Made by a program: the position numbers and the translations under genes. The notes below the pieces were generated by a model. It did not search any database. It was given only the letters and a program-made list of their open reading frames with translations, and was not told the origin of the DNA. From a virus, in the IMG/VR virus record IMGVR_UViG_3300025762_000005: a stretch of DNA of 45,754 bases, one strand, 5' to 3'. Positions 826-40,517 of this stretch are shown in pieces; the stretch's first letter is position 1, and every line of letters starts with the position of its first letter.

Positions 826-826
826 T

Positions 827-1114: not shown

Positions 1115-1116
1115 GA

Positions 1117-1551
1117 ATGAAATTTTATATTACTGTCGAAGGTTTACCAAAATTAAAGCGGGCTTTTCTAAACTTAAAACTTTATTCAGTTGTAAGTGTT
1201 CCGGAAATCCTGTCTGACTTAGGATATACTTATTCTACGATAGATGAATATGCAGCTTTTATAGTCAATCAAAAAATAACGGGATTGATTGAAAATTATG
1301 TAAAGTCCAAAAGAATTCGTGGGATTATTTATTCTAATCCAAACCTTAGCAGGGATATAATTGAAAATCTTTTTAATGAATTAGAGACCTGCGATAGGAT
1401 TTCAGATTTAGTTTTACTAGATGACTATAATGTACCAAAACTAGAACAATATTACGATCTTTTTAGAGAAATAATCTTCTTCCCTTCTGTCAAAAAGATT
1501 AGGCTTATCGAGTGTAAGCCTATTCAGGATAAATTAAATTGGAAAGTCTAA
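1117..1551 (+). CDS. Hypothetical phage protein
   Basis: 144-aa ORF 2 nt after the upstream stop and followed by a terminator hairpin. Confidence 0.65.
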   Translation: MKFYITVEGLPKLKRAFLNLKLYSVVSVPEILSDLGYTYSTIDEYAAFIVNQKITGLIENYVKSKRIRGIIYSNPNLSRDIIENLFNELETCDRISDLVLLDDYNVPKLEQYYDLFREIIFFPSVKKIRLIECKPIQDKLNWKV

Positions 1552-1571
1552 CCCGCAAGGTTAGACTTTTT
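1543..1571 (+). terminator. Intrinsic terminator
   Basis: aaagtctaacc-cgcaa-ggttagacttt hairpin running into a T tract, overlapping the stop of 1117..1551. Confidence 0.7.
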
Positions 1572-1579
1572 AGTTTCTC

Positions 1580-1596
1580 GAATATATAAAATAAAA
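1580..1596 (+). promoter_or_regulatory. Putative phage late promoter
   Basis: gaatatataaaataaaa just upstream of ATG 1603; the same motif recurs before other operon starts. Confidence 0.5.
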
Positions 1597-1602
1597 TACA
1601 GT

Positions 1603-3951: not shown

Positions 3952-3953
3952 TT

Positions 3954-4538
3954 ATGTTTTTAAATTCTATAGATAATAAGCCTTTACTTACAAAGGAGGA
4001 CGGAACAACAATTAGGGATTTGACCCAGACGATGTTCAACTTTAAAACTAATAATTATCTTAGTTTTCAAGCATATAGGATCCCTGCAGATTATGCCATG
4101 AGACCCGATTTAATTTCTCAAGCAGTTTATAATAATACCATTTATGCAGAGTTCATTTTAAAATATAATGGAATTAGCAATGCTTTTACTATTTCTCCAG
4201 GAGACATTATTCTTATCCCTGATTTAAATAGTGCACAGGATAATGTTAAGAAACAGGGGGAAGGAGCGGATTCTCCGGAGAATAAGATTAGGCTTTCATA
4301 TAAATATATCGACCCCACAAAAGCTCCTAAACAAGATAAAACTGCTGTTGCTTTTAGTGATAGAAATCTTAAAGAGGGTGCATTACCTCCTAATATTGCC
4401 GATGAAGGAGCAAAACAGATAGTCCATAGGAATGGCCGGGTTTATTTTGGGGAAGGCATTGGAGAAAGTGCATGTTTAAAGAATGGAATGAGTTCAAGTG
4501 AATTCTTAACTACAATTATAAAAAGCAAAAAAGTCTAA
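3954..4538 (+). CDS. Baseplate wedge protein, T4 gp53-like (LysM-like)
   Basis: YRIPADYAMRPDLISQAVYNN...ILKYNGISNAFTISPGDIILIP matches the gp53/LysM-like pattern. Confidence 0.7.
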   Translation: MFLNSIDNKPLLTKEDGTTIRDLTQTMFNFKTNNYLSFQAYRIPADYAMRPDLISQAVYNNTIYAEFILKYNGISNAFTISPGDIILIPDLNSAQDNVKKQGEGADSPENKIRLSYKYIDPTKAPKQDKTAVAFSDRNLKEGALPPNIADEGAKQIVHRNGRVYFGEGIGESACLKNGMSSSEFLTTIIKSKKV

Positions 4539-6151
4539 TGGCTGATTATACATTTAATCCAATCGGGGATAGTGAACCCCCAAAACAAGCTAGTAGAAAC
4601 GATGCTGGAAAAGAAAAATATAGGATTTATAATGTTTTCAAACCAACAATCGTATTGGATGAAATGTCCTTACCCGAAACTAATCCTGGGGGAAAAGCTC
4701 AAAAGATAGAAGATAAAACTTCTGTAGAATTTCCTTTTATAAAAATAAATGATTATCTTATTTCTAGGGGAGAGATTGATTATTTTGAAATAGATTCAAC
4801 AAAAAGGCTTCCGACTATTATCCTTACTTTAAGTTTTTCTAATGATAAATTCCTAACTAAGGAAATGCCTAAAGATGGGGACATTATTTCTGTGGCTATT
4901 ACTAATCAAACTGATTTATTACATCCTATCCGAAATGATTATGTAATTACGGGGGTAAGCCCTCTTAAAAAAAGTACTTCTGTTCAATCAGGTATTACAA
5001 TTACATTTTTTGGAGAACTTTTTATACCAGGTCTTTCAGGATATAAAAAAGCTGTAGCTTTTAATGGAATGACTTCGATGGAAGCTCTAAAAGAAATCGC
5101 TAAATCATTAGGTTTAGGATTTAATACAAACGAAGAAAACACAGATGATAAGCAATTATGGTTTGTTTTTACTAGCTATGAAATTTCCATCGAAGAAATA
5201 GCTTCAAGATCATGGAAAGATGAAAATAGTTTCTTTGACTGGTGGATCGATATTTATTATAATTTTAATTTTGTAAATGTTCAAAAACAATTACTTTCAT
5301 CGGAAGATGAAATTGATATAGCTGCTTCTTTAAGTAATGTTCCGAAAGAATATTATTGGGGAAGTAATACAAATGAAGCTGTTGAGGCTCCTAAAGTATT
5401 TTCAAACTTCGAAGGATATAGGACAACAAGTTTTTATATCACAGACTGGAAACCCATTAATAAATCTTCAGCTATTACTTTTGAATATGGAACTAATGTT
5501 CAAGCTTGCTTCTTTGAGCATAACAAAGTTCTTTATGATGACCCGGAAAAAACTAAATATTGGTCCTTCAAAATTGATCCTGCTTATGACCAGGAAAAAT
5601 TAAACAGCCATATTTTATTGAGAGGGCGAGCTACTTGGGATGCTTCCTTACATTCCAATGAACCCGCAAGAGCTAATTATAACTATGCAGATCTCTATAA
5701 TAGTTCCCCATGGTTAGGAATTCAATATACAATTTCTAATCCCGATGAAGATAATAGTAAATGGACAGGAAATCACCACAGAAATTATGTTAGATCACAG
5801 ATTCAAAATATTTTGAACCGAGTTGAATTAGAAAAATTAAATGTAGAAATATCTGTTCAGGGTTCTAACTTAAATATCATTAAAGGGGATAAGGTTCCAA
5901 TTGTTTTAATACAAAAGAATCGTTTTGAAAACCTCTTAATAGATAAAAATTTTGTTGCCGATGCAGCTTTGGAATTTTTCTATACGGGATGGTATTATGT
6001 TAAGGGATTTACTTTATCCTGGGTAAGAGATGTTCCGCAAGTCTATTCGCTATTCTCCCAAAAATTTATTTTAACAAGAAGAGAATGGCCTGCTCCTGTT
6101 CCTGTTGATCCAGTAAAAATACAGGATAAAAAAGGCTTTGAACAACAATAA
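4538..6151 (+). CDS. Probable baseplate hub protein (gp27/late-control-D-like)
   Basis: 537 aa between the gp53-like and gp5-like genes; C-terminal FFYTGWYYVKGFTLSW...QKFILTRREWP resembles hub proteins. Confidence 0.5.
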   Translation: MADYTFNPIGDSEPPKQASRNDAGKEKYRIYNVFKPTIVLDEMSLPETNPGGKAQKIEDKTSVEFPFIKINDYLISRGEIDYFEIDSTKRLPTIILTLSFSNDKFLTKEMPKDGDIISVAITNQTDLLHPIRNDYVITGVSPLKKSTSVQSGITITFFGELFIPGLSGYKKAVAFNGMTSMEALKEIAKSLGLGFNTNEENTDDKQLWFVFTSYEISIEEIASRSWKDENSFFDWWIDIYYNFNFVNVQKQLLSSEDEIDIAASLSNVPKEYYWGSNTNEAVEAPKVFSNFEGYRTTSFYITDWKPINKSSAITFEYGTNVQACFFEHNKVLYDDPEKTKYWSFKIDPAYDQEKLNSHILLRGRATWDASLHSNEPARANYNYADLYNSSPWLGIQYTISNPDEDNSKWTGNHHRNYVRSQIQNILNRVELEKLNVEISVQGSNLNIIKGDKVPIVLIQKNRFENLLIDKNFVADAALEFFYTGWYYVKGFTLSWVRDVPQVYSLFSQKFILTRREWPAPVPVDPVKIQDKKGFEQQ

Positions 6152-6170
6152 ATAAAAAAATAACCAGATA

Positions 6171-8297
6171 ATGCCAACCTTAGCTGAAAATATCTTTAAG
6201 TCTTTTAGAACTCCTGGTTCAGTCTTGAATAGCGGAGTAATTGCTGGCGGAAAAATATCAAAAACCTTTGATGAACCAACCTATTTGACTTTTAGACTTG
6301 GATTTAGACCTGCAAATACGAATCTTGAGTTAACAAACTATGATAAAATGCCTCATCCATTATTTGAAAGGGCAGAGCCTCAGGATGATATTAATGCAAG
6401 AAATTTTTATTCTACAAGGCAATTCTTAAGGGATGCTAATGAATTCGTTAGAGAAAAAATGCTCTTAGAATTTATTGATAAATGGAATGTTGTTCAAAAT
6501 AATTATCAATGGTATTTCCAAAGTATCTCAGGAATTGACTCCTTATTAAAAATAGATCCAAAAAGAGGTATCAGGGTTTCTAAAGATGGCAAAGTTACAA
6601 TTAAGATGTTTGAAGGACTTGATTGGAAAATTATTCATCTCCTAAATCTTTATCGCAAAATTGCATGGGATGATGTTTATCAAAGATGGATACTTCCCGA
6701 TATGATGCGTTATTTTATGATGGATATTTACATTACAGAATTCAGAACATTTCATCAATCTACATTAACTACAAATCCTTCAGAACAAAAACCAAAAACT
6801 TTTCCAGGTTCTGAAGTTCCTAATATGGTTTTAACGGCTATTGACGATTTAATGCCTACTTATGTTATTCATTGCGAAAGATGTGAATTTGACATTACAT
6901 CATTTAATTCTCAATTCAACGATCTTAATGTAACGGATCCTCAAATGGCCGAAATATCTTTTGACATTAAAGTTGGAACTATAACAGAGGAATATAGAAA
7001 TTCTATTCTTGATTATTACTATACAGATCGAATTATCAATGGATTAGAAAGAAGCGTAGAATTTTCAATGCTTAAAGGAGAATCTATTCCAGTTAATCTA
7101 GGAGGGGTGAGTGTTCCTATTATCATGCAAGAGGATATTCCTTATAATCCTTTAAAAATCTCAGCTAATACTGAAGCAAGAGCATATATAAATCCTGATA
7201 TGGATTATGGGGAAAAAGCTTCTCATACATCCGGACAGCCTTTTGTTGAAACGGGTGGATCCGGGGAATCTAATCTTTCCAACGCATCTCAGGCCATTCA
7301 ACCGCCAACATGGATAGGAAATACTATCAAATTCGGAAAAGCATTTGCAGAAAATCTTTTAGATACTGCAGTTGGAAAAGCTAAGATGACTAAAATACCT
7401 GGGTTAGGAGTTTCCTTTAATGAAGCCCTTGCAGCTGCACAAAGTAAAAATATCTTTGTTGTTTTTGGCCTTGTTCGTCAAGCTATGACTCAGGACTTAG
7501 CCCCTACGATGCCTTCTCAAGAACTTTCCAATAAGCTTATAGATACTTCTTTTAGAGAATTTGTTTCAAAGATAGCTAAATCCGAAGCAACAAATGGAAC
7601 AGAGAATTTAGTAAGAGCAGCAAATAAAATTTTGAACGATCAAGGAATATGGGAAGAAATAAAAGATATGTCAAAAGCTACAGATCTTATTTCTCAAATA
7701 TATAATGAAGTTAATATAGGGAAATCTATTGAGAACCCCGAAGGATTAAAATCCCAAGTAAATATTTTAACTTCTAATGATAGATCAAAAGCAACAGATT
7801 TAGATGGAGATCCTACGATCACAGGACAATCTTTAGTCTATAAGGGAATTCCGCTAAGCACTTCTACTTCTGGTTCAATTGAAGGAAAAACTCTATCTAA
7901 AGTAAAAATAGGATCTACAGATGGAAATATTCAAAAGGACGAAGGGCAAGAAACTAATCCTAGCGTTGCAACCTCTGTAGGTTATCTTGAAAAATCTAGC
8001 TTTTCTGAAATTAAACCTAATTTGGGAATTGAAGAAGGCGGTTTGGAAAGTGCTGCTCCAAGTTTAGCAACTTCCAAAAGGGACGATTTACAAAAACCTA
8101 ATTTTACAGGAAGTAAACCTAAATCAGAAATTCAAGGTGGCGAAATTGAGGATGCAGAAGTAAGTAAAGCTACAAAAAGTGATATAGAAAATGGAAAATA
8201 TTTCTTTGGAGGCATTTCAAAAAATGAATTAGTAAAAGAAAAACTTCCAAGACCAAAACCAAGTGAAGATTTAAGCGAACCTATTAAAAATAAATAA
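6171..8297 (+). CDS. Probable tail/baseplate structural protein
   Basis: 708 aa in the baseplate operon; ordered N-terminal half (FDEPTYLTFRL...), S/T/G-rich C-terminal part. Confidence 0.4.
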   Translation: MPTLAENIFKSFRTPGSVLNSGVIAGGKISKTFDEPTYLTFRLGFRPANTNLELTNYDKMPHPLFERAEPQDDINARNFYSTRQFLRDANEFVREKMLLEFIDKWNVVQNNYQWYFQSISGIDSLLKIDPKRGIRVSKDGKVTIKMFEGLDWKIIHLLNLYRKIAWDDVYQRWILPDMMRYFMMDIYITEFRTFHQSTLTTNPSEQKPKTFPGSEVPNMVLTAIDDLMPTYVIHCERCEFDITSFNSQFNDLNVTDPQMAEISFDIKVGTITEEYRNSILDYYYTDRIINGLERSVEFSMLKGESIPVNLGGVSVPIIMQEDIPYNPLKISANTEARAYINPDMDYGEKASHTSGQPFVETGGSGESNLSNASQAIQPPTWIGNTIKFGKAFAENLLDTAVGKAKMTKIPGLGVSFNEALAAAQSKNIFVVFGLVRQAMTQDLAPTMPSQELSNKLIDTSFREFVSKIAKSEATNGTENLVRAANKILNDQGIWEEIKDMSKATDLISQIYNEVNIGKSIENPEGLKSQVNILTSNDRSKATDLDGDPTITGQSLVYKGIPLSTSTSGSIEGKTLSKVKIGSTDGNIQKDEGQETNPSVATSVGYLEKSSFSEIKPNLGIEEGGLESAAPSLATSKRDDLQKPNFTGSKPKSEIQGGEIEDAEVSKATKSDIENGKYFFGGISKNELVKEKLPRPKPSEDLSEPIKNK

Positions 8298-8299
8298 TT

Positions 8300-9079
8300 A
8301 TGCAATTACCAGACGGCTTACATTTAACAATGAAGGATCTTCACGATAACGACTGGTTAGGCGTTATCTCGAACAATATTGACCCGACTTTTTCTGGTAG
8401 GTGCCAAGTTCGTGTTTATAGGTTAATGGATCACTTAAGTTCCAAAGATCTTCCTTGGGCAGTCCCAATTAATTCAACTGTTTTTGCTAGTGATGGAGCT
8501 GGATCTATTTCTATTCCTAAAATTGGACAAATAGTTCGTGTTCAGTTTAATAATGGTGATATTTATTCCCCTGAATATACTACTATTCAAAATATTGATA
8601 CCCAATTAATTGAAAGGATTAAAGATGACTATGATGGAACTCATGTATTACTCTACGATCCCGATGAAGAATTAACTATCATATATCAAAGAAATAGTGG
8701 AATGCAAATGTATTATCGCGGAAGTTTTATTCAAATTTCGCCTGATAGTATGATTACAATTGAACATGCAAATCAAGAATCTTTAATACAGTTAGATGGG
8801 GATAAGCTTAATATCGTTACTAAAAATGAAGTTAATGTTTCTGCTGCAGCTAAAGTTAGTATAAATGCTGACGAAGTTGTAGCAAGTGGCAATCAGGCAA
8901 CCAAGTTAGGTCCAGGTCCTTATTATCATGCTGTTTTAGGAGAAGTTTTATTTCCATTATTACAAACTATGGCTACTGCTTTGGATGCAAAAATGCCTGC
9001 AACTCCAGGGGTAAATACAGGATTGGTTCAGCAAGCTAAACAAGCAGCTATTTCAAATAATGTTTTAATCTCAAAATGA
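8300..9079 (+). CDS. Baseplate central spike, T4 gp5-like N-terminal OB-fold (no lysozyme domain)
   Basis: WLGVISNNIDPTFSGRCQVRVY...DLPWAVP matches the gp5/VgrG OB-fold motif, followed by beta-strand-rich repeats. Confidence 0.8.
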   Translation: MQLPDGLHLTMKDLHDNDWLGVISNNIDPTFSGRCQVRVYRLMDHLSSKDLPWAVPINSTVFASDGAGSISIPKIGQIVRVQFNNGDIYSPEYTTIQNIDTQLIERIKDDYDGTHVLLYDPDEELTIIYQRNSGMQMYYRGSFIQISPDSMITIEHANQESLIQLDGDKLNIVTKNEVNVSAAAKVSINADEVVASGNQATKLGPGPYYHAVLGEVLFPLLQTMATALDAKMPATPGVNTGLVQQAKQAAISNNVLISK

Positions 9080-11655
9080 TAATTAAAGAATACATAGAAT
9101 TTGAAAGAGGGCAAAATCCAAAAAAGAGTCTTCGTATTGGGGTTCATCATTTAATTCCTCAAATAATTGAGAAATTCGAGGAATCCCCATTTGAACTTAC
9201 TCGAAGAGGGGAAGTTTTAGATCTTGAACAGAAGTATGAAGTGTCCCCAGAAAATTTTCATAATCCAGCAGGGCATCCAAAATATGATTGGGAATTTGTG
9301 TATATCATGGAAGATTTTGAAGTTTCCATTCTTTATATGATCGATTTGAACAATGGCGAAATTTTAAGAAAAATGAAAGTTTCAAATCCTCGTATCGATG
9401 CAGAATATATTGATAATGAGAATTGGAAAATTACTTCTTTAAACCCCGATAAGATTTATGAGGAAATAGATCAAGATTATGCTTTAATTGATATTGCCGA
9501 TGCTGCAGAATATTTATGGGATATGTATCAAAAGCAAATAGAAGAAGAAGAATTTGAGGATGAAGAGATTGATGAAAGCTTAGATTTTGAAAGAGGAAAA
9601 ACACCAGAGCAAATTAAAAGAGATTTAAGAGGACATTTTCGTCCTGGCGAAATTTTGCTCCGCCCCGATAATGGATACACTCCTCATCAAACAATTATGG
9701 TATTTAAAAGAATAACTCCGCCGGATTATGCTGGAGAACAATATTATGAAGTAGCTACTTTAGGATATATCAATACTAAAGGGGAAGTAAAAACTTACGG
9801 GTCATCTCGCTTTGCAATGGATGATTATAATAAAGGGAATATGGTTTCTATTGACACCAAAACAAGATTCCCAAATAAAGAAGAGGAGCTGCTTATAAAA
9901 AGATTCTTAAATAAAAGCAAAATTTGGAAAATAAAAGAAGCTATTGGAATTTATCCTATTCTCAATGGTAAATCTTTATCCCTAACAGAATCCATCGATT
10001 TTGTCCGCAGTCAAGAAAATCCGCTGGATTCTTTAGAGATAGGACGCGTTTTGGAAAGAATAAAAGAGCAAGTTATGGAAATAGGTCCTGATATAGCTCA
10101 AAAAACTTCTCTAGGATGGTTAGTTACTCAAGTAAAATTTGTTGAAGGAATTCCAGAGGGTCAAGTTATCTGGAATTCTAAATCTTTAAAGGATCTTACC
10201 GAATCCGGATGGAAAAAACTTTTCAGAGAAATGAAAGAAATTAAATCAAAAATGTTTCCAAATATGAAGGAAGGATTAGAATTTAATAGGGGGATGGACC
10301 CAAGGGATTCTATGGAAATAGGAAGGATCGAGGAAAGAAGAGAGGCTTTAATAGATTGGATTATAGAGCAAGATCCTATAAAATGGACGGGAAGCTCTGT
10401 ATTAGCTCCTTTTATTACTCGAAGACATCCTCATCCATGGGGTTGGGATATGAAAAAATTCGAGGATGCTTCCCTTATGGAATTAAATCATATAAAGGAA
10501 TACATTGAAAAATGGGAAGCCGTTGATAAGAAATATAATGTCTTTGATGGGCCAGCCTCAAAAGTTCATGAAAGATTAAATTTTGAAAGGGGAATGGATC
10601 CTAAACAATCTATGGATATTGGAATAAATGCTAGGATTAATAAAATTACAAGTAGTGATCTGGAATTCCTTAAAATCTATACAAATGATGGAGATGGAAA
10701 AGGACATGCCAATCCGAGATTTTTTGAAGATGTTTATGGGGATTCTCTAAGCTTTAATGAATATTTAGAAAGAGCAAAACGAACTTATAATTTACTTGAA
10801 CCTTTTGAATATCTTTTTGGGGATCATTTTCCATCGGATATGAAAAAGGAAATGAGAGAATATGTGAAAAGTTACTTAAAAAATCCTAAATATAATTACG
10901 CTTATAATTGTGATATTATGGGGGACGGTGATGTTGATGTGTTCTTTTCGGAAATAAAATTACCTTCTGCAGAGCTTCTTGGAAAAAAACCTGGGTTAAA
11001 AGAATCTGTTAATTTTGAAAGAGGCATTGATCCTAAGAAATCTATGCAAATAGGCGTAAAAGCCAAAGTAAAAGAAGGAATGAATTGTTTATTACAGAGT
11101 TCCCGAAATTTTTCTTCAAGAATTTCTACAATTAATTTAGCGGGTAATAGAAATGATCTTTGGCTAGAAATTTCTGATTATGGAACTCCTAATTTTGAGG
11201 ATTTTATTGAGAGCTGTTTATCCCCGGAATATTTTGAACGGATTTATATAAAGGCAAAACCTAGAAAATATAAATCAACATCTCAAAATAAATGGGTTCT
11301 AGTTATAAAAACACAATATAAATCGGCATTTAGAGCATGTTTTGATAATCAAGGGTATATTATTGAATCTGCCAATTTTGAAAGAGGATTGGATAAGGAA
11401 AAATTAAGAATTGGAAGTATTCGTCCTATTGAAAAGTTAAAAAAAGATTATCATAATATTCAGGAGTTAGTTCAAACAGGTAAATATTTGGAATTTCAAA
11501 TTCCCTTTAGTAAAGAAGCTTTAGAAGCTATTCCAAATACTAATTATTTTGGATGGGGGAATATTCAAAATAATTTTAAAAATATGAGTAGGGAAGAATT
11601 ATTTCCCTTTGAATTAATTGTTCGTAAATATACTAAATTAATGGGTCTTGAATGA
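9076..11655 (+). CDS. Seven-module FERG-tag protein, putative virion polyprotein
   Basis: 859 aa; seven copies of E-x-x-x-F-x-R-(G/S) tags (Phe codons at 9100, 9586, 10000, 10282, 10582, 11014, 11377); ATGA overlap with the gp5-like stop. Confidence 0.8.
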   Translation: MIIKEYIEFERGQNPKKSLRIGVHHLIPQIIEKFEESPFELTRRGEVLDLEQKYEVSPENFHNPAGHPKYDWEFVYIMEDFEVSILYMIDLNNGEILRKMKVSNPRIDAEYIDNENWKITSLNPDKIYEEIDQDYALIDIADAAEYLWDMYQKQIEEEEFEDEEIDESLDFERGKTPEQIKRDLRGHFRPGEILLRPDNGYTPHQTIMVFKRITPPDYAGEQYYEVATLGYINTKGEVKTYGSSRFAMDDYNKGNMVSIDTKTRFPNKEEELLIKRFLNKSKIWKIKEAIGIYPILNGKSLSLTESIDFVRSQENPLDSLEIGRVLERIKEQVMEIGPDIAQKTSLGWLVTQVKFVEGIPEGQVIWNSKSLKDLTESGWKKLFREMKEIKSKMFPNMKEGLEFNRGMDPRDSMEIGRIEERREALIDWIIEQDPIKWTGSSVLAPFITRRHPHPWGWDMKKFEDASLMELNHIKEYIEKWEAVDKKYNVFDGPASKVHERLNFERGMDPKQSMDIGINARINKITSSDLEFLKIYTNDGDGKGHANPRFFEDVYGDSLSFNEYLERAKRTYNLLEPFEYLFGDHFPSDMKKEMREYVKSYLKNPKYNYAYNCDIMGDGDVDVFFSEIKLPSAELLGKKPGLKESVNFERGIDPKKSMQIGVKAKVKEGMNCLLQSSRNFSSRISTINLAGNRNDLWLEISDYGTPNFEDFIESCLSPEYFERIYIKAKPRKYKSTSQNKWVLVIKTQYKSAFRACFDNQGYIIESANFERGLDKEKLRIGSIRPIEKLKKDYHNIQELVQTGKYLEFQIPFSKEALEAIPNTNYFGWGNIQNNFKNMSREELFPFELIVRKYTKLMGLE

Positions 11656-12296
11656 AGGCTTTAAAAATATATGAAACCCTTAACTTTAAAAGATTTGAAG
11701 ATCCCAAGGAATCTATGGGGATAGGTAATGAGGAATTCAAAATGATAAATGCTGTAGATAAAGAGCTTAAACCCATGGGGCTTATTAAAACAGGACCAGC
11801 GGATATGGGTAGTCAAAGCCATTATATGAGAAGTTTAGAAGAATGGAAAAAACCAGGGGGATCTAAAGATAGGCAAACGCGAGTTAATTTATATTTTATG
11901 AATTGGTATGGAATTGAAAAATATCAATTTAGCATCGTAGTTAATGGTTATCCAATTCATTTTGGCAAGGATTCAACTGATTGGTATGATTTTAAAAATA
12001 AATGGCCAGAGTGGACAAGTTCCTTAGAAATAATTAGAATGACGGAATTAAAACCCCGGAGTATAATAAGATCTAGATCAAAATATGCAATATCTAGCAA
12101 ACTGCATCAATTTAGATACCAGGAATCCGATATAAGAAAAAAGGATTGGATTATAGAAAAGGGAGAAGAAATTCAAATTATAGATATAGATTTTAATGCT
12201 CCGGGGTGGGGGGAAATAAAGGTATCATTTGACAATACATATTTTATCTGTAATCCACAAGAATTATGGCAACATTTTGAAATTGTCAGTTTATGA
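11652..12296 (+). CDS. FERG-tag family protein
   Basis: Starts MKALKIYETLNFKRFEDPKESMGIG; ATGA overlaps on both sides. Confidence 0.75.
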   Translation: MKALKIYETLNFKRFEDPKESMGIGNEEFKMINAVDKELKPMGLIKTGPADMGSQSHYMRSLEEWKKPGGSKDRQTRVNLYFMNWYGIEKYQFSIVVNGYPIHFGKDSTDWYDFKNKWPEWTSSLEIIRMTELKPRSIIRSRSKYAISSKLHQFRYQESDIRKKDWIIEKGEEIQIIDIDFNAPGWGEIKVSFDNTYFICNPQELWQHFEIVSL

Positions 12297-15200
12297 GTCT
12301 TAAAGATAAATTAATAAAAGCTGCCTTTGGAAAACTAACTTTGGAAATCGAGAAATATAAAGGGTTCCTTAAAAAACCCGCTACTCTTCTCGCTTTAAAA
12401 ACTGCTGCTTTTTCTTTACTAAATATTCTACTTTCCCAATTAAAAGATGTTATAAGTAAAAAATTCACTGATGATGAGGCTTTATCCTATGTAAAAAATA
12501 ATAGGGATCTTCAAAAGCTATGGGGTTTAATTGGGCAGGATGTAGAAGAATCCTATCTTAATGAAATACTTCTTCTATGCGAAAATCCAAATTATTATGA
12601 ACAAGATTTTGAAAATTTCCTAAAATCCCTAGATGGAAAAAATTTATCCGGGGAAGATTATATAAACTTGTTCAATAATTCTGATGAATTTGATAGAAAA
12701 ACCTCCAATTATAAAAAGAGCACAGAAATGGCAAATGCTATTTCAAAAATAACTGAGGTAGCTCCCTGGGCATTTATGGTTTATGTAATTGGATTAAAGA
12801 TAAAAGAATTTTTGTCTCAAAATGAAGATCCTTCACCATATAGAGGAAAATATCTTCAAAGACTTATCCGCATTATTTCATCTATATTAAAACAAAGAAT
12901 ACAAGATGAAAAAAATGCTGTTAAGGGAGTAAAAGAAGCTGCAAAATCTATATCTGAAAAAGAAAGAAAACAAATTGAATCTATTCTTAAATCTTTAAAA
13001 TCTTTAGATGCAATTATAGTTGGAAGCTTATTAGCTTCGGCCGTTTATTTAAGAAATCGAAAACTTTTACAGAGTAAGTCCCTTGAATCATTCCGGGAAA
13101 TACACTCTGCTCAATTATGCGAAATGGTAACAGAGCCGGAAATACCTGAAATTGTTCCAGTCCCTTTAAATGAAAATTTGACCACCTGCCCCGTTGATTT
13201 AGATGATAATTTAGTGCCTCATATTCCCATTGAATTATCAGATCTTTCTTGTGAAATACCTTTAGGACAGGATTCTTCAATTACCGAGGGATCGCAACCA
13301 GATATTGCGACCAAAGCTCTTTATGAAAATACTTCTTCAGTTAACTTTAATATTTTGGTTAAAGCCGGGGATACACTTAGAGTAAATGTTCCAATGGCTA
13401 CTTATGATGGGGATAAGGTTTATCCTACTGTGAATGGGGTTGTAGAAAAAGTAGAACCTAATAAAATTTATGTTGAAAATATTTCGGATCCCGATCAGAC
13501 ATATTTGGAAGAGGTAATTACAAAAATGAATGATGCCTATAAAGAATTAAACGATACTAAATTCTTTTTAATTGATTTTTATATTCCTTCCTGGTATCCT
13601 GTAATGTTAAAATTTTCGCCTCTTATCGATGGGAGCCTTTCTATTCAAGAATCATTATTACTCTTTTATAAAACAGGCGGGGTAAAGAAAAGGTGGGATG
13701 GAATACAAAGTGATTTTGAAAAACAAAAGAAAGATTGGGATAAAAGAAATAAAGATATAGCCAAAGACAGTAAAGTAAAAGCCAAAGCCGAGGCTGAAAA
13801 GATGGACGATATTCGAGTTGAAATGAATCAGAGTGAAGAGATTCTTTTTAAACAATTAAAGGCCGATGCTGTACAAGGGGTAAATGAATCCAAAGTAACT
13901 AAGCCAGATGAAAAAGAATTCGAGCTTATAGAATATTACTTTTGGCTATCCCAAAAATTAATGGCTTATTTTGATAAGAATACTATTGCAACCACTATGA
14001 TTAATAAAATATCTGAATTCCTAAGAGAAAGGTATTTTACAGACAAATATAGTGTAGATAAAATAAAATCAAAAATCAATAACTATTGTAAGGATCTTGC
14101 TCAGGGAACCTTCTTTTCAGTTACCCCGGATTTTTATAAGATATTAAGACAAAAATGGGACGAATCTAATGCCCAAATAGGACAGCGTTTTACAGCCGCT
14201 GAGGACTATTTAAAAGATTTACAAAAAAATAACAAAAAACTAAATGACACTGAGAAAACCTCATTACGTGAATTTATTTTATTCCTATTTAATTTTAGCA
14301 TTGAGATCGATAAACTTATCGAAACAAAATACTCAACGGAAAAAACAAAATGGACCGAAACAGAATTAGAAGGAATATGGATTGAACAATTCTTCGCTTC
14401 TCTATGGAAAAGATATGATACTCTCCCCGGGGAAATTGAAGGTTATCAAAAGGAATTAGATGATATTGCTCGTACTTTTACTACGTATTCGATTATAGTT
14501 ATAAATGACGAACAATATAGATATTATTCAATTGGAGAAGCTGCATGTGAACCCCCAGAAGAGGATGACCCATATCTTTCTCCTAAAAGTAAAAAAGGAT
14601 ATGGCGATATTTCTTATTGGCTAAGATATTGTTCATTTGCTACTCTTGCAAGTGTTGCAAACCCAGCTACAAGTTGGTCAACAGGAATTCCCCCTCCAAT
14701 TGGGCCTATTCCTTTTCCAACCGTTTATATTCCAATAAAAGCTTTTGAAGTAAACTGGGGATTTATTGTTGTTGGGCTTACAATTACGGGTATTTATCCT
14801 TTCCCCTGGGCTCTCTTTGTTAACTGGTCTACTGAACATCATGTTCCTTTAGCAGATCCGGCAACTTTAGTTAAAAAAGAAGTGGAAGCTTTAAAAAAAG
14901 AACTTTCTAATCAATTAAAGGAATTTAAAAAAGAAAAATTAAAAACTTATTTGGATAAAGTAAAAGAAGACATAAAATTTCTTCAAGAACAATTATCTGA
15001 TTTGCAAAATCAAAAAAGAACTCTTAGGGAACAAAAGCCTCGAAGGGATTATTCGGTAGAAAGAAAAATCGATATTCCTAGATATACAACGGATCTAGCA
15101 AAATGGGCCGAGAAAGTGGTAGTCTTAGACGAATTGATTTTAACCTCTAAGAAAGATAAAATGCAATCAGAGATTAAATATAAGATCATTAAGGATGCTT

Positions 15201-15715
15201 ATGACGGAGCTCCTATTGCAAAAAATCAGGATGCTAAGATACAGGCTTTACAAAACACAGAAGAAAAAATATTATCTCAATTTGATAAGCTAGATTTATT
15301 AATAGCTGGAATTGATAAGTTTTTAGCTCCCCTTCCTATTGCAACAAAACCGGAGACAGCTAATTTTGCATTTACGGTAAAAAATCCAAAACCTATTATT
15401 AATATGGCTACGGATATTGACCAGAATATAAATTATGGTCCTTTAAATAAAATTATAGAAAAATTCGAGCCTAAAAATGAGGACTTAATGAAAACCAATT
15501 ATGGTTCTATTTTATCCAAAACATTTAATAATTTCAAAGGATATAAAACAGCTTTGAAAGCAGCTATGCCTACTATAATTAAAAGCGATCCTTTTCCAAA
15601 ATATGAGAATTTAAAGCCAAGTAATCTACCATGGATGACTTTCCTATTAAAGGAATGGGCTCCAACAGGAGCAAAAACCTATGGATTTCCTGGATTTCCT
15701 CCGCTGCCTCTTTAA
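12293..15715 (+). CDS. Large hypothetical virion-associated protein with coiled coils and hydrophobic segments
   Basis: 1140-aa ORF ending the + strand baseplate operon; no confident family. Confidence 0.55.
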   Translation: MSLKDKLIKAAFGKLTLEIEKYKGFLKKPATLLALKTAAFSLLNILLSQLKDVISKKFTDDEALSYVKNNRDLQKLWGLIGQDVEESYLNEILLLCENPNYYEQDFENFLKSLDGKNLSGEDYINLFNNSDEFDRKTSNYKKSTEMANAISKITEVAPWAFMVYVIGLKIKEFLSQNEDPSPYRGKYLQRLIRIISSILKQRIQDEKNAVKGVKEAAKSISEKERKQIESILKSLKSLDAIIVGSLLASAVYLRNRKLLQSKSLESFREIHSAQLCEMVTEPEIPEIVPVPLNENLTTCPVDLDDNLVPHIPIELSDLSCEIPLGQDSSITEGSQPDIATKALYENTSSVNFNILVKAGDTLRVNVPMATYDGDKVYPTVNGVVEKVEPNKIYVENISDPDQTYLEEVITKMNDAYKELNDTKFFLIDFYIPSWYPVMLKFSPLIDGSLSIQESLLLFYKTGGVKKRWDGIQSDFEKQKKDWDKRNKDIAKDSKVKAKAEAEKMDDIRVEMNQSEEILFKQLKADAVQGVNESKVTKPDEKEFELIEYYFWLSQKLMAYFDKNTIATTMINKISEFLRERYFTDKYSVDKIKSKINNYCKDLAQGTFFSVTPDFYKILRQKWDESNAQIGQRFTAAEDYLKDLQKNNKKLNDTEKTSLREFILFLFNFSIEIDKLIETKYSTEKTKWTETELEGIWIEQFFASLWKRYDTLPGEIEGYQKELDDIARTFTTYSIIVINDEQYRYYSIGEAACEPPEEDDPYLSPKSKKGYGDISYWLRYCSFATLASVANPATSWSTGIPPPIGPIPFPTVYIPIKAFEVNWGFIVVGLTITGIYPFPWALFVNWSTEHHVPLADPATLVKKEVEALKKELSNQLKEFKKEKLKTYLDKVKEDIKFLQEQLSDLQNQKRTLREQKPRRDYSVERKIDIPRYTTDLAKWAEKVVVLDELILTSKKDKMQSEIKYKIIKDAYDGAPIAKNQDAKIQALQNTEEKILSQFDKLDLLIAGIDKFLAPLPIATKPETANFAFTVKNPKPIINMATDIDQNINYGPLNKIIEKFEPKNEDLMKTNYGSILSKTFNNFKGYKTALKAAMPTIIKSDPFPKYENLKPSNLPWMTFLLKEWAPTGAKTYGFPGFPPLPL

Positions 15716-17457: not shown

Positions 17458-18113
17458 ATGAGAGCACAATTTGTTAAAATGGAAATAAATATTAAAACAA
17501 CGAAATGGTTTCGGGGATAATATATTGTGCTACTTTACCATCTAATAAAAAATATTATGGGTTTTCTTTAAATTTGGAAAACCGAAAAAGAACCCATAAA
17601 TGCCATGTAAATGCAGGAACCAAGAATAAGTTTTATAATGCTATTAGAAAATATGGATGGAATAATATTATATGGGAGATAATTGAAAAACATGATGCAG
17701 AATGTAAAAAGGATTTAAAAGAAATCCTATGCAATCGAGAAATGTATTGGATTGCAAAATCAAATACTTTTTTGGATGGATATAATATGACCGAAGGAGG
17801 GGATGGGGCGTTAGGATTATTATGGAAGGAAAATTCCAAAGAAAAATTAAGTGAAACTCAAAGGGGAAGAAAATTATCGGACAGTCATAAGAAAAATATT
17901 GGATTGGGATTGATCGGGAAATCCAATGGTATGAAAGATAAACATCATGATGAAAAAACAAAACATAACATAAGTAAAAAATTAGAAGGAATAAAAAGAT
18001 CAAAAGAAACTAAAGATAAAATGGGAAAATCTAAAATAGGAAAAAATAATCCTATGTATGGGAAAATCCCGTGGAATAAAAAAATCGATAAAAATGAGAG
18101 CAAAATTTGTTAA
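17458..18113 (+). repeat. 20-bp direct repeat flanking the GIY-YIG gene
   Basis: atgagagcacaatttgttaa (17458-17477) vs atgagagcaaaatttgttaa (18094-18113), 19/20 identical. Confidence 0.8.
17505..18113 (+). CDS. GIY-YIG homing endonuclease with NUMOD3-like repeats
   Basis: GIIY...KKYYG, RKRTH, NREMYWI, GYNMTEGG; SDSHKKNIG / DEKTKHNIS / SKETKDKMG repeats. Confidence 0.85.
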   Translation: MVSGIIYCATLPSNKKYYGFSLNLENRKRTHKCHVNAGTKNKFYNAIRKYGWNNIIWEIIEKHDAECKKDLKEILCNREMYWIAKSNTFLDGYNMTEGGDGALGLLWKENSKEKLSETQRGRKLSDSHKKNIGLGLIGKSNGMKDKHHDEKTKHNISKKLEGIKRSKETKDKMGKSKIGKNNPMYGKIPWNKKIDKNESKIC

Positions 18114-35553: not shown

Positions 35554-37089
35554 TTAGAATATATCTTTATATTTTTCAATAAATCTATCTACGCCCTTCT
35601 GATATTTGTCTCTTCCCTCAACTTCTCCAAGTTCATCGTGGATATAAGGATGAAGGTCAATCATCATCTTAATAGCTCTGGTTGCAAGAGAACCATTGTC
35701 AAGACGGATAAGATAGGTTACAAAATTATCAAATTCTTCAGGAGTAATATCTCTTCCCCTGGTTGATGTACAAACGAGAGATAGAAGAGCGTTAGCTTCT
35801 GACTGATCATATCCGGATCCAGCTTTCTTAGGCATACGAGCTTTTTCAGGATGGGCAAGAACCTCTTTAATATCTTCTTTTTTGAAGGATTCAAGAAGTC
35901 TTAGGAATGTTTGGAACTCTGTTGCAATATCCATACCAACGTCTGAACCAACTACGTTTGTTATATCCTGAATAGAAGGCTTATAACCTTCATCAGCAGC
36001 ATCCTGCATTAGAAGAGCAATATTCTTAGAAGCTGCTTCCCATGAACGAGGGCTAGCAAAGATGCTCTTTTCTGGATCATCGTCAAGAGTATAGAAATAT
36101 TCTTGGTTAAATTCTAGGAAGTCAAGTATTCTTTGGTCAACTTTATTCTGTGCCCATTCTTTCCAACCAGCAAAATCAGGAATATAGTTAACCTGCGAGA
36201 ATCTGTTTCCGAGAGCTGTTGAGAAGTTCTGAACACCTTCAGGGTCATCTCCTGCTCTGTTGGATGCTGAAACAATCGTCCATTTAGAACCTAGAACTGC
36301 GTCCCCAATAATTCTTTCATCAATAAGTTTTAAGCAAGTATTCTGAACAGAACCGGATGCACGTGAAAGTTCATCCAAGAATAAAATACCTCCTTCACCC
36401 ATATTAGCTATGCCATCTCTTCTTTTATCTTCTTCTGCATCGCCGCTCTTAATATAAACAGGAAGCCAAGATTTAGGAATATCCCTAGCTTTTAATTCAT
36501 CATCAACTTTATAAGTTGCTGGAAGTGACCAGTCATCTGGGGCCATTTTAGAAGTTTGGACATCGATCAATCTTCCTTTTGTATTCTGTGCAAGAACTGC
36601 TTTAACAATTGCGGTTTTTCCAATACCAGGAGCTCCCCAAATCATAAGAGGTTTCCCCTGTGGGTTCTTTAAAACCATACGAATTCTTCTATATAATTCT
36701 TTCTTTCCTACATTAGGAACGTTTTTATCAGGGTGTTCAAGTTTTATTCTAGCTTCATTAATAGTTCCCTCTTTAAGATCCGGTCCTCTTTTCTGAATAA
36801 CTTTTTCAGCGGTAAGGGATTTTAGTTCAGGGCTTAATTCAACATCACCCTGGGAAGCTACATAAGAAATAGATTTTGGTAAAGCACCATCCTTATCTAA
36901 TATCCCAATATTAACAGGAGCCATAGCTTCTGTAACAGGTTGCCCCTGGAAAATGAAGAAAAAAAGCTTTCCAACTTTCTGGAAGAATTTTTTAATAGCT
37001 TGTCCTATTTTGCTGAAGATCGCTTCATTTAGTTCTCCTCTAGCAATCTGAAAATCCTGGAGAGATTCAAATACTAATTGTTTTTTCAT
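35554..37089 (-). CDS. MoxR-type AAA+ ATPase
   Basis: Walker A GAPGIGKT, Walker B ILFLDEL, SASNR, ALGNRF, SPRSWE. Confidence 0.9.
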   Translation of the reverse strand: MKKQLVFESLQDFQIARGELNEAIFSKIGQAIKKFFQKVGKLFFFIFQGQPVTEAMAPVNIGILDKDGALPKSISYVASQGDVELSPELKSLTAEKVIQKRGPDLKEGTINEARIKLEHPDKNVPNVGKKELYRRIRMVLKNPQGKPLMIWGAPGIGKTAIVKAVLAQNTKGRLIDVQTSKMAPDDWSLPATYKVDDELKARDIPKSWLPVYIKSGDAEEDKRRDGIANMGEGGILFLDELSRASGSVQNTCLKLIDERIIGDAVLGSKWTIVSASNRAGDDPEGVQNFSTALGNRFSQVNYIPDFAGWKEWAQNKVDQRILDFLEFNQEYFYTLDDDPEKSIFASPRSWEAASKNIALLMQDAADEGYKPSIQDITNVVGSDVGMDIATEFQTFLRLLESFKKEDIKEVLAHPEKARMPKKAGSGYDQSEANALLSLVCTSTRGRDITPEEFDNFVTYLIRLDNGSLATRAIKMMIDLHPYIHDELGEVEGRDKYQKGVDRFIEKYKDIF

Positions 37090-37107: not shown

Positions 37108-38742
37108 TTATATTTTATTTATCTTAGCTTTTATCTTATCAATTTCTTTATCCGATAATTCCTCGTGGATCTTTGGTTTTGACAAAATAATTTCAATCAT
37201 CTTTAACCAATTCTCCTTTGCCTTTTCTGAAGTTCCTACCTTACTTATCTTAGAAACAAGCATTTGAAGTGTTTTCTTTACCTTTACTCTTGGGTCTTTT
37301 AAAAGCTCCTCAACAACAGCAAAAGCTTGATTAGCAGCAGCTTCATAAATTATATAATTATCTTCATAGACAATATTATAATTTTTATCCAAAGATTCTT
37401 TTGCATCGGCAGGATTAACCCTGGGATCTTCCATTAATTTTTTTACGGCATCAACATTATTATTTTTTGCTGCTTGATATAATGCTTCATTATGATTATC
37501 AGCTGGATTTACTCTTTCATCTTTTAATAGTAATTCAATCACATCTGGATTACCTCCCATAGCAGCTGATGCAATTATAGAATTTTTTCTAAAAGCTGGG
37601 TTTGCAGCAGGATCCGAAAGGAGGAGTCTAACAATATCTACATTTCCCTTCATAGCAGCTCTTGTTAAAATCCCATTTTTATCTTCCATTTTTAAAGGAA
37701 AATTCTTTAATGATGGATATTTAGCTATTTCATTATTAACTTCTTCAATAAAATCCCCAAGAAGCTTCTCCCTTCCTATACCTATATTAGCTTTAGCATC
37801 CCCACCTCTGGTAAATCCTAAAGATTCCCTCACAGGATTATTTTCCATCATTTTTCTAAGTCTTTTCTGAGAAAGCTCCTTCATATAGGGAACTTCTTTT
37901 TTAACTCTAGGATCTGATAATAAAAGACTTACCATTTCCCTATCCCCATTATTTAAAGCCGCTGCTAGAGCCCAATTATCCCTGCTTGTGGGATCTACTC
38001 TTTTATCTTTTAAGAGAAGTTTAACAATATCTACATATCCATTTTTTGCAGCTCTTCTAATGCAATAATTGGTTTCATCATTTCCATATCTTTTGCCATC
38101 TCGGGTTTGAGCTGCTGGATCTACAATAGGACTAGATAAAAGAGCTCTGGCAACCTCTAGATCCCCTCTTTCACAAGCTTTTTGAATAGGGCCATCAGAA
38201 TCTATATTTAAATTTGTCGCCCCATTTTCAATAGCCCATAATAAAAGTTCTGGAGTCCAATGAGAATACGATAAAGAAAATGCTTTATTTGGTCCTAATT
38301 TTTTGATGCCATCTATAGTTCTCTGGGGTTCATATCTCATAAAGTCATTGAAAGTATATTCAGTTATCCATGATTTAGGAGCATTCCAAAGATCATCTTC
38401 TCTTCCTAATAAATAAAATGCTTGAACCCAACCAGAAGCATAATTTTCCAAATTATTTGGATTAAAGGTTTTTATTTTGTCCAATAATTCATTAAAAACT
38501 TGCATCATAGCAGGTCGGCTCTGATTCATTGAATAAAAACTAGCAATTTTTCGAGTATCAATATGATAGATCTTTTTTTCCGTAAAATCATTAAGTGATT
38601 TTGGTGCCTCTGATTTTAAAGCCCAAGATTGATCATGGGCTAAATCTTCCATCATCTCTGGAAAAAGCGCAGCTTTTCCAATAGCCATTCCTTCTTTAGG
38701 GTCTATATTTCTAGTAAAAGATATGGCTTCCTTAACAATCAT
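37108..38742 (-). CDS. Two-module FERG-tag ankyrin-repeat protein
   Basis: MIVKEAISFTRNIDPKEGMAIG and internal VRESLGFTRGGDAKANIGIG; ankyrin repeats such as AAKNGYVDIVKLLL and AAMKGNVDIVRLLL. Confidence 0.85.
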   Translation of the reverse strand: MIVKEAISFTRNIDPKEGMAIGKAALFPEMMEDLAHDQSWALKSEAPKSLNDFTEKKIYHIDTRKIASFYSMNQSRPAMMQVFNELLDKIKTFNPNNLENYASGWVQAFYLLGREDDLWNAPKSWITEYTFNDFMRYEPQRTIDGIKKLGPNKAFSLSYSHWTPELLLWAIENGATNLNIDSDGPIQKACERGDLEVARALLSSPIVDPAAQTRDGKRYGNDETNYCIRRAAKNGYVDIVKLLLKDKRVDPTSRDNWALAAALNNGDREMVSLLLSDPRVKKEVPYMKELSQKRLRKMMENNPVRESLGFTRGGDAKANIGIGREKLLGDFIEEVNNEIAKYPSLKNFPLKMEDKNGILTRAAMKGNVDIVRLLLSDPAANPAFRKNSIIASAAMGGNPDVIELLLKDERVNPADNHNEALYQAAKNNNVDAVKKLMEDPRVNPADAKESLDKNYNIVYEDNYIIYEAAANQAFAVVEELLKDPRVKVKKTLQMLVSKISKVGTSEKAKENWLKMIEIILSKPKIHEELSDKEIDKIKAKINKI

Positions 38743-40517
38743 TAACTAATATTAATTTGTTTGCCAAATGGCTGCTGCCATTGAGGATTATCATAAACCA
38801 TCCAAATAAATTTGTGAGCATAAGGTGGTTTCTTTGGATTGGGAGCTCCCCCGTCAGTAAAGAATACGCAAAGGGAAACTCTATCTTTTAGTTTATCATG
38901 TACCCAATCAAGAGCTTTTTGGAAGCTAGTTCCGCCGCCACCCCTAACATTTTTAGGAATATATGGTTTTCCCATTTTCTTAATGGTCTGAACACTTCCC
39001 TCATCAACACCATCATCAAAGAAAGCTACGGTAATTTTATTAACTCTTTTTGAGAAAATAATTTGGTTAATTTCATTTAATATTTTTTCTAGAGCTTCCC
39101 TACCCATAGAACCAGAAACGTCGACTAATACTACAATATGTTCCATAGCATCCATCTTATGTTTCTCTCCATAACGTAGAAATTCCCCGCTTAAGTGTTT
39201 TTTATTTCCAATTTTCTGATATGTTTCAGGGGATAGAGCAGTTGCAACATATCTTCTGAACATATTTTGCCAGTTAACATCTCCTCTATGTAATCTTGAA
39301 AGTGCTGTAACAAGAGCACCTCCTTTTCCAGTACCTCTTCCCTTTGATCCTTTTAAAGCACGATCGAGCATTTTTGCCCCCTCAACACGCCATTTATCTG
39401 TCGGACTTTCGTCTGGCCCCATTTCCCCTTCTCCATATCCGCTTGCTTTAGCAATTTTCTTTCCCATTTCTGGAGTAATAATACCTCCTGTTCCAGCAGG
39501 GTCATATTCCTCAGCTTGATCGAAACTTTCTTCGTATCCATCACTTCCGGATCCACCAACACCTTTATCTTCGCCTTCTCCTTCTTCTCCTTGTCCCTGT
39601 CCTTGGCCTTGCCCTTGCCCCTGACCTGAATCAAGAGGAATTAATTCATCTTTTTTATAACTTTCAAAAAGATAGGTGACTAAAAGACTTTCATTAAGAG
39701 GACCTACCTCATAAGTTCCGTCGGGATTTACAGCCGTAACAACTCCTTTTTCTCCTGTAGCTTTAATCTTAACTTTACTACCTACTTGGAGAGGTTGTGG
39801 TTGGCTTTTTCCGCCACCCTGCTGACCTTGACCCTGACCCTGTCCTTGACCGCCACCTTGCTGATCCTGTCCCTGATTTTGTCCTTGATTATTCTTTTTA
39901 AAAGGATTAGGTGGCATTTTTGGAATAGTTTTCTTTAGATCATCATAAATCTGTTCAACGGGAACATTTAAATATTTTTCATCATAAAGACCCCCAATTT
40001 TTTCTACAAACTCTTTATTGAAGTCGCTTAAAGTATCTACTATAATAGTATTAATTTCATAGTCTCCAGCAATATTAAATAGAGAAGCAGGTTTTCCCTC
40101 AGAAGTCATAACTGTTGCATTTCTGGATTTCATACGTTCCATGTGAAGGAGAACGCAGTGCATGATCTCATGAATAATAACAAAAATTTTCTGCTCCCAC
40201 GAAAGCTTATCAGCAAATAATGGATTTACAAATAATCTTGTTCCATCGGTTGCCATTGTAGGAACAATCCAAGTGTAGATTGGGGTAAATTTATGAACAT
40301 AAGGGGCAAATAAAGGAGATTGAGAAACAATAGCTGTTTTAGCACTTTCCATTTCATTTTTAAGATGCCTCATGTCAATTTTGGTTCCATCTTTAGCGAA
40401 AACATATCCATAATCTTCGATCTTCGCTGATTTAGGAATATCCATTCCTTCTTTAGCTTCATACAAAAAATCGTTTATTTGAGGATAAAATCTTGGATTT
40501 AATAGTTTCATATTCAT
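38742..40517 (-). CDS. HExxH putative metallopeptidase + VWA domain protein (DUF2201-like), MoxR partner
   Basis: TMATDG, IHEIMHC (HExxH), MIDAS DVSGS, GGGTSF, FFTDG; the start may be the second Met at 40511. Confidence 0.85.
   Translation of the reverse strand: MNMKLLNPRFYPQINDFLYEAKEGMDIPKSAKIEDYGYVFAKDGTKIDMRHLKNEMESAKTAIVSQSPLFAPYVHKFTPIYTWIVPTMATDGTRLFVNPLFADKLSWEQKIFVIIHEIMHCVLLHMERMKSRNATVMTSEGKPASLFNIAGDYEINTIIVDTLSDFNKEFVEKIGGLYDEKYLNVPVEQIYDDLKKTIPKMPPNPFKKNNQGQNQGQDQQGGGQGQGQGQGQQGGGKSQPQPLQVGSKVKIKATGEKGVVTAVNPDGTYEVGPLNESLLVTYLFESYKKDELIPLDSGQGQGQGQGQGQGEEGEGEDKGVGGSGSDGYEESFDQAEEYDPAGTGGIITPEMGKKIAKASGYGEGEMGPDESPTDKWRVEGAKMLDRALKGSKGRGTGKGGALVTALSRLHRGDVNWQNMFRRYVATALSPETYQKIGNKKHLSGEFLRYGEKHKMDAMEHIVVLVDVSGSMGREALEKILNEINQIIFSKRVNKITVAFFDDGVDEGSVQTIKKMGKPYIPKNVRGGGGTSFQKALDWVHDKLKDRVSLCVFFTDGGAPNPKKPPYAHKFIWMVYDNPQWQQPFGKQINIS

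Follow-up and report, generated by a model that had tools for sequence, protein, structure and literature searches.

The window analysed here, the whole of a 45,754-nucleotide (nt) stretch of viral DNA (IMG/VR record IMGVR_UViG_3300025762_000005), is a low-GC (33%) fragment of the genome of an uncultured myophage. It codes for baseplate proteins (a gp5-like OB domain and a gp25-like protein), an M23 peptidase, a lysozyme, Hsp20, a MoxR AAA+ ATPase, a zincin-VWA protein, ankyrin and leucine-rich repeat proteins and GIY-YIG homing endonucleases, and its source is a giant T4-type phage. Immediately after the gp5-like gene lies an open reading frame (ORF) of 859 amino acids (aa), hereafter P0001, whose ATG shares bases with the TGA of that gene (aaaATGAta). 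An earlier reading of the letters alone, the original prediction, had divided this ORF into seven units, each a short common tag followed by an unrelated cargo, and had proposed that a late-expressed precursor is packaged and cut into seven proteins.

Seven copies of a 20-residue tag, h-x-E-S-h-N-F-E-R-G-x-D-P-K-x-[AS]-M-x-I-G (h, hydrophobic), are present in P0001, with their Phe at aa 9, 171, 309, 403, 503, 647 and 768. In every copy, a hydrophobic-x-Glu triplet ends four residues ahead of the Phe (position -4) and reads I/L/M/V-x-E at all seven junctions, while the second half of the tag is degenerate in copies 2, 3 and 7. The pattern [LIVM]xE...FxR[GS] was thus observed seven times, against a mean of 0.008 and a maximum of 2 in 20,000 shuffles of the protein. 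Cutting after each Glu would give pieces of 5+162, 138, 94, 100, 144, 121 and 95 aa. The cargos have masses of 11-20 kDa (101 kDa for the full-length protein) and mixed isoelectric points (pI) of 4.4-9.3. With the tags removed, BLASTP detected no similarity among them (best E = 0.19). No family was found anywhere in the 859 aa in Pfam, PHROGs or the ESM Atlas, and neither Pfam nor PHROG gave a protease domain within them. These results confirm the seven units, the overlap of the start codon with the gp5-like stop (ATGA) and the lack of visible similarity between cargos that the original prediction had described. The N-termini it expected (SLDFERG, SIDFVRS, GLEFNRG, RLNFERG, SVNFERG and SANFERG) are all in the sequence, and six of its unit sizes agree with ours, whereas the last unit is 95 and not 92 aa long. 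Directly before tag 2, cargo 1 closes with a strongly acidic stretch, EEEEFEDEEIDE (window 9520-9567, aa 149-164). The features are listed in Table 1.

Table 1. Genes and cassettes discussed in the text; positions are those of the window unless another record is named, and a slash marks a putative cut
Feature	Position	Strand	Remarks
gp5-like baseplate spike/hub gene	8300..9079	+	259 aa; Pfam Phage_base_V, E 5e-7; PHROG 37871 and 430 (baseplate/hub)
Seven-cassette ORF (P0001)	9076..11655	+	859 aa
Cassette 1 (aa 1-167)	9076..9576	+	Leader MIIKE; tag 1 at nt 9082-9141; acidic cargo, pI 4.4
Cassette 2 (aa 168-305)	9577..9990	+	Tag 2 at nt 9568-9627, across the junction; degenerate past FERG
Cassette 3 (aa 306-399)	9991..10272	+	Tag 3 at nt 9982-10041, FVRS variant
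Cassette 4 (aa 400-499)	10273..10572	+	Tag 4 at nt 10264-10323
Cassette 5 (aa 500-643)	10573..11004	+	Tag 5 at nt 10564-10623, VHE/RLNFERG
Cassette 6 (aa 644-764)	11005..11367	+	Tag 6 at nt 10996-11055, canonical LKE/SVNFERGIDPKKSMQIG
Cassette 7 (aa 765-859)	11368..11655	+	Tag 7 at nt 11359-11418, IIE/SANFERGLDKEKLRIG; without Pro
214-aa gene 3' of the cassette ORF	11652..12296	+	Start overlaps the cassette ORF stop; leader and degenerate tag MKALKIYETLNFKRFEDPKESMGIG
MoxR-type AAA+ ATPase gene	35554..37089	-	Pfam AAA_5; among tagged genes; candidate partner
Zincin (HEIMH) and VWA (DVSGS MIDAS) protein gene	38742..40517	-	591 aa; DUF2201_N/DUF2201; long GQ-rich linkers; candidate tag-processing or docking enzyme
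M[KR]AK[LF][IV][KN]ES leader genes	G004 (L117-L133) 74644-75033, 85695-85988, 239009-239452, 274834-275313; L021 9521-9946; L082 9659-9949		

Comparison of P0001 with its homologues shows that the cassettes are real evolutionary units, which relatives delete, reorder or split exactly at the tag. Intact homologues are 554-862 aa long. An exact tag-to-tag join replaces cassette 3 in close relatives of 765-767 aa, as it does in P0004-P0007, and a similarly exact fusion has removed cassettes 2-4 from a 554-aa homologue; at 49-74% local identity, relatives carry cargos 5, 6, 4 and 7 in a changed order and mixed with other cargos. All seven cargos were found in other contexts. Cargo 1 stands second in P0013 and first in P0014 and P0025, cargo 2 first in P0031, P0046 and P0047 (42-69% identity), and cargo 3 is present in P0099, P0016 and P0014. 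Cargo 4 lies behind cargos 5-6 in P0009-P0012 and first in P0050, cargo 6 is shuffled in P0009-P0014, P0025 and P0028, and cargo 7 takes the first position in P0036, P0053 and P0070. Two cargos also exist as genes of their own: cargo 5 as P0030, a complete 143-aa gene (L008 3813-4244, 71% identity), and cargo 7 as P0032, a full-length protein of 103 aa (90% identity). In L008, the stand-alone cargo 5 gene is followed by a tagged gene whose start overlaps its stop. The search for stand-alone modules in related phages that the original prediction had suggested was therefore positive for cargos 5 and 7, and the other cargos recur in other orders and genes.

The tag itself belongs to a large family. 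A phmmer search of 1.84 billion representatives matched 238 proteins, and 450 internal tags in 173 of them were used to draw a logo. Conservation at these internal tags reaches 96% for the Glu at -4, 76% for the Ser, 99% for Phe, 98% for Arg, 96% for Gly, 98% for Pro and 100% for the final Gly, and Leu, Ile or Val occupies position -6 in 77%. The six residues upstream are not conserved and are rich in Lys, Ser, Gly and Pro. Tags lie a median of 117 aa apart and number from 1 to at least 10 per protein. At conserved tag positions the synonymous codons differ, so selection acts on the tag peptide; for the same reason we rejected the idea that the tag DNA is kept as a recombination site, and recombination does occur at tags, as the tag-to-tag deletions show. 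Internal translation starts at position -6 were rejected as well, the codons there being mostly GTT, GTA, ATA and TTA.

Tagged genes are numerous in these genomes. The window holds 23 tags at the level of a regular expression, distributed over about 16 ORFs and both strands, besides degenerate ones, and the related record G002 holds 33, its tagged genes being scattered across at least five regions. Short genes that open directly with M-N-F-E-R-G, with no Glu leader, form an array in the window (30750-33206, minus strand) and have counterparts in G002 at 24540-27841 and 47389. In a more distant phage (L106, 3225-13523), the 13.5 kb directly behind the gp5-like gene contain 17 tags, and one tagged protein there has a GNAT acetyltransferase cargo. 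Among 73 tagged relatives, the identifiable cargos were ankyrin repeats (8/73) and GNAT acetyltransferases (4/73), which are effector-like. A full-text search of the literature found nothing relevant on NFERG or FERGxDP variants, and no paper with this tag.

The predicted structure of the C-terminal part is that of separate domains. Residues 497-859 were folded with AlphaFold2 on an alignment whose rows had been checked for correct placement; two MAFFT alignments (A1 and A5) were excluded from folding, as they put stand-alone cargos on the wrong cassette because the tags dominate the alignment. The model consists of three separate domains corresponding to cargos 5-7, with a predicted local distance difference test score (pLDDT) of 80-95 and a predicted template modelling score of 0.41. 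By cargo, the pLDDT was 82-90 (cargo 5), 80-91 (cargo 6) and 88-95 (cargo 7, helical), and it fell below 50 exactly over the three tags of this region. Cargos 5-7 are thus not predicted to form one integrated structure. Disorder is thus predicted for the most conserved stretch of the family, as is typical of a linear motif that another molecule recognizes, and in these models the tag looks like such a motif. A full-length model from a shallow collinear alignment was uninformative for cargos 1-4 (mean pLDDT 39.5). Foldseek searches of the PDB with the predicted cargo folds gave no match at E <= 0.001. In a wide VIA-align comparison, cargo 6 came closest to a ferredoxin-like/S6 chain and cargo 7 to small helical bundles, but the best Z of 5.8 was too weak to name a fold.

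The Glu at -4 behaves differently at internal and N-terminal tags, which is the most telling, though indirect, sign of a cut. In the loci compared, it was present in 31/31 internal tags and missing in 17/54 N-terminal tags (Fisher p = 1.7e-4); those without it begin MNFERG or MRARTVNFERG. Being near-invariant internally and dispensable at N-termini, this Glu seems to be needed only where an upstream chain must be removed, and its absence from many N-terminal tags indicates that the tag core does not need it. Moreover, a product starting S-h-N-F-E-R-G would be only one residue longer than the native M-N-F-E-R-G, which suggests that the tag must adjoin a free N-terminus. The putative cut sites in aa 497-859 fall in predicted disordered linkers, and the h-x-E at the tag junctions fits the L/I-X-E motif of T4 gp21 (PMC9026906). 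Short leaders of 5-8 aa of the h-x-E-S type (MIIKE, MIVKE, MKIVRE, MRAKxIYE) are about 20-fold enriched at N-termini. In the tag-less 323-kb record G004, small genes begin M[KR]AK[LF][IV][KN]ES, a conserved stretch of eight residues ending in h-x-E-S that is about 20-fold enriched over internal Met positions. This enrichment even in a tag-less genome suggests that the leader is older than the tag. By analogy with the capsid-targeting sequences of T4, which it resembles (PMC9026906, PMC5694885), the leader may be capsid-targeting-like.

A protease of the required type is present in relatives. The related IMG/VR records, which share a 631-aa baseplate protein with the window, reach 323 kb, and Peptidase_S77 scored above the cut-off in G002, G004 and G006. 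In G002 (132 kb, baseplate protein 88% identical to that of the window), the Peptidase_S77 domain is fused to a scaffold-like tail with invariant TVNE/S, LNE/S and IVNE/N sites, and the adjoining gene codes for a Gp23-type capsid protein with LNE/A sites. The protease-scaffold gene lies at 60768-63302 of G002 (L095 768-3302); its tail of about 640 aa, with invariant h-N-E-S sites, contains a run of W-x-G-x-x-A-K-A-h-N repeats at about aa 300-430. Its homologues number in the thousands, annotated PF03420 and PF20034, and occur on contigs of up to 405 kb.

We consider it plausible, if a little short of probable, that the 859-aa ORF is cut into seven separate proteins. In the same vein, P0001 could well be a modular cargo precursor, in which seven unrelated, independently folding domains are joined by a disordered tag that serves as address and cut site at once. 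The ORF would be made late, together with the baseplate operon, and the precursor would enter the prohead, where a T4-type prohead protease would cut behind the Glu of every h-x-E. The products would all begin S-h-N-F-E-R-G, near-identical to the native N-terminus of the stand-alone MNFERG genes, and what is left of the tag would give them a shared means of docking within the head or of being delivered later. As internal or ejected proteins, the cargos would be interchangeable; we infer both their packaging in the capsid and their delivery.

Several observations weigh against this packaging and cutting by a prohead protease. Neither a head module nor Peptidase_S77 was found within the 45.7-kb window, and the protease was seen solely in relatives. 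Tagged genes lie in tail/baseplate and MoxR/VWA neighbourhoods and do not adjoin head genes. Peptidase_S77 also occurs in relatives without any tag, so that it does not explain why the tag exists. The h-x-E motif carries little information, four further [LIVM]xE[SAGN] sites being present within the cargos, and the residue after the cut (P1') is bulky at two junctions (E/Y and E/R). The products would keep about 17 conserved residues past the putative cut, unlike the conserved element of T4 (about 10-20 aa), which precedes the cut and is discarded, and to our knowledge gp21-type proteases are not known to need anything near 17 conserved residues past the cut. The mixed charge of the cassette cargos also differs from the basic nature of the T4 internal proteins. 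Finally, tblastn of P0001 and of a neighbouring 1140-aa protein against 50,697 GenBank phages gave no match, and no cultured relative was found.

The same 17 residues past the Glu, which indicate binding rather than a mere cut site, could be accounted for by a chain that stays uncut. P0001 would then resemble beads on a string, its seven disordered tags each offering a docking site to the same phage or host partner; the whole would be a multivalent adaptor or scaffold, and single-cassette genes its monovalent counterparts. A conserved disordered linear motif between folded domains, in a number that varies from protein to protein, is what such an adaptor would show. However, a pure docking motif would not predict a Glu that is near-invariant internally yet dispensable at N-termini, and the ease with which cassettes are split and fused among adjacent genes shows that their covalent linkage is not selected for. 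We regard an uncut docking chain as unlikely.

A second alternative keeps the cut and changes the enzyme. The MoxR AAA+ ATPase and the VWA-zincin protein might together recognize and process the tag in place of the prohead protease: the VWA metal-ion-dependent adhesion site (MIDAS) would grip the tag by an acidic residue and the zincin would make its cut close by, perhaps ahead of the hydrophobic residue at -2, giving the same h-N-F-E-R-G N-terminus as in the MNFERG genes with no capsid required. The 591-aa protein keeps its HExxH and DxSxS motifs intact and sits with MoxR in a block of tagged genes in the window, in G002 and in the G001 fragment L107, the loci compared being L103 and L107-L116. 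Its distribution also counts against the prohead protease, since tags were found in 6/10 related IMG/VR records with DUF2201_N (G001, G002, G005, G009, G027 and G031) and in 0/22 relatives without it, records of 260 and 323 kb included. Among the remaining DUF2201_N records, G028 and G030 gave F-V-S-G matches only, G029 (162 kb) gave none and G032 lay outside the pattern search. Furthermore, processing of structural proteins has been suggested as a role for the MoxR and peptidase-VWA pair of T4-like jumbo phages (PMC7824862). However, the co-occurrence of tag and VWA-zincin comes largely from one clade and thus represents few independent events, G029 has the VWA-zincin and no tag, and jumbo phages for which no tag is known have the pair too (PMC7824862). 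The model moreover leaves the match of the Glu at -4 and of L/I/V at -6 to the gp21 motif unexplained. A three-chain complex prediction (S77 protease domain, VWA-zincin and a linker-tag-cargo 6 segment) scored 0.00, which is not evidence either way. Processing by the MoxR/VWA-zincin pair seems improbable to us.

The original prediction had also coupled the ORF to the baseplate spike gene, which was overstated, as this coupling is not conserved. The slot after gp5 is filled by genes of 859+214 aa in the window, by an endonuclease gene plus genes of 108+767 aa in L006 and by two shorter tagged genes of 247+464 aa in L105; in the phage that encodes P0017, a DUF7487 gene occupies it and the multi-cassette gene lies elsewhere. 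These differences indicate that the linkage to gp5 and the linkage among cassettes are both evolutionarily free. That the cassettes are tail or spike cargo, loaded on the gp5-like spike or behind it and released at puncture much like the type VI secretion effectors encoded beside VgrG, is very improbable: the overlap of the ORF start with the gp5-like stop and the return of tagged genes to the slot after gp5 in several relatives would fit, but tagged genes are scattered over at least five G002 regions and both window strands, the P0017 multi-cassette gene does not adjoin gp5, homing endonuclease and other genes intervene in L006 and L008, and a prohead protease would never meet tail proteins, which would leave the Glu rule unexplained.

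Around the cassette ORF, the plus-strand genes from 292 to 15715 overlap or are tightly spaced, placing it within a run of structural genes, and no terminator-like sites were found on this strand from 3740 to 15715. The T4 late-promoter word TATAAATA was not enriched (10 observed versus 9.7 expected), and a sigma-70 scan stayed at background level. The degenerate tag of the 214-aa gene that follows (11652-12296), NFKRFEDPKESMGIG, has Phe replacing Gly; the close relative L006 lacks this gene, and its 767-aa gene abuts the 1140-aa gene. An insertion hot spot separates the gp25-like gene from that of the 631-aa baseplate protein (window 27772-28233, minus strand); it holds a tagged 153-aa gene in the window and untagged leader-bearing genes in L021 and L082, and is empty in L035, L036, L062, L063 and L075. 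GIY-YIG/NUMOD3 homing endonuclease genes repeatedly adjoin tagged genes (window 17505-18113, plus strand, and 42615-43310, minus strand; L006 6594-7238; L008 3118-3750; L009 10426-11109), and in L006 and L008 one such gene lies between the gp5-like gene and the cassette genes. These endonucleases might promote cassette exchange.

The independent cassettes, the T4-type protease motif at the junctions and the presence of such a protease in a close relative all favour the polyprotein reading of the original prediction; its description of the strategy as eukaryotic-virus-like, however, was overstated. The nearest precedent is the capsid-targeting and internal-protein system of T4, not the eukaryotic viruses. 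T4 gp21 cuts after the Glu of L/I-X-E, and this motif also ends the short capsid-targeting sequence at the N-terminus of the T4 internal proteins (PMC9026906, PMC9958956). As with IPI, IPII, IPIII and Alt of T4, unrelated small proteins share a short N-terminal element ending in L/I-X-E, the lineage has a Peptidase_S77 prohead protease and a Gp23-type capsid protein, and the loci are hypervariable and swappable, with cargos that look effector-like (PMC9026906, PMC9958956). In contrast to the single-cargo genes of T4, up to seven cargos are chained here and ten or more elsewhere, with dozens of cassettes per genome. In phiKZ-like phages, many head proteins are cut at S/A-X-E (PMC5694885). The giant phages phiKZ, 201phi2-1 and SPN3US resemble the proposed system in that they pack many paralogous head proteins with conserved N-termini, in which a gp21 homologue cuts behind Glu, at some of them more than once (PMC5694885, PMC9026906). 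However, these phages belong to another lineage with another P3 preference, the cut falling at S/A/G-X-E, and they remove long propeptides, with no retained 20-residue tag and no chains of unrelated cargos.

Polyvalent proteins, in the account of Iyer et al. (2017) given in PMC7824862, likewise combine several unrelated domains in one polypeptide, which presumably enters along with the DNA and undergoes processing. As portrayed there, they differ in having recognizable conflict-type enzymatic domains, often a peptidase of their own, and no repeated junction tag. None of their signature domains was detected in P0001 or among the 73 tagged relatives. With the polyproteins of eukaryotic RNA viruses, P0001 shares a single ORF, several independent units and short repeated junction motifs, the products being predicted here. 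Unlike in those viruses, the protease would act in trans and be encoded elsewhere, the cargos are accessory and not the replication or structural core, and the same cargos also exist as separate genes. Encapsulins offer an analogy only: a short, disordered, conserved loading peptide addresses unrelated cargos into an HK97-fold shell. Their loading peptides differ from the tag in being mostly C-terminal and in involving no protease step.

A wider proposal, which we advance tentatively and hold to be rather doubtful, is that the FERG tag serves generally as an N-terminal address, stays on the protein and works only beside a free N-terminus, whether that of a native MNFERG or one made by a Glu-specific cut. 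Through it, a clade of T4-type phages with genomes of about 400 kb would load dozens of shuffled effector domains into the virion; the system would have arisen together with the MoxR/VWA-zincin machine, and the 859-aa ORF would be one seven-unit magazine. Even if the chain is uncut, the tag would still be an unusually conserved disordered motif whose partner is worth finding. If the tag does address and release cargo, it would extend the capsid-targeting idea of T4 to an address placed after the cut, with many cargos per chain and a free N-terminus required, and it would provide a compact natural tag for loading foreign proteins into phage particles. It would also show how giant phages bring a large and rapidly exchangeable set of proteins into the host.

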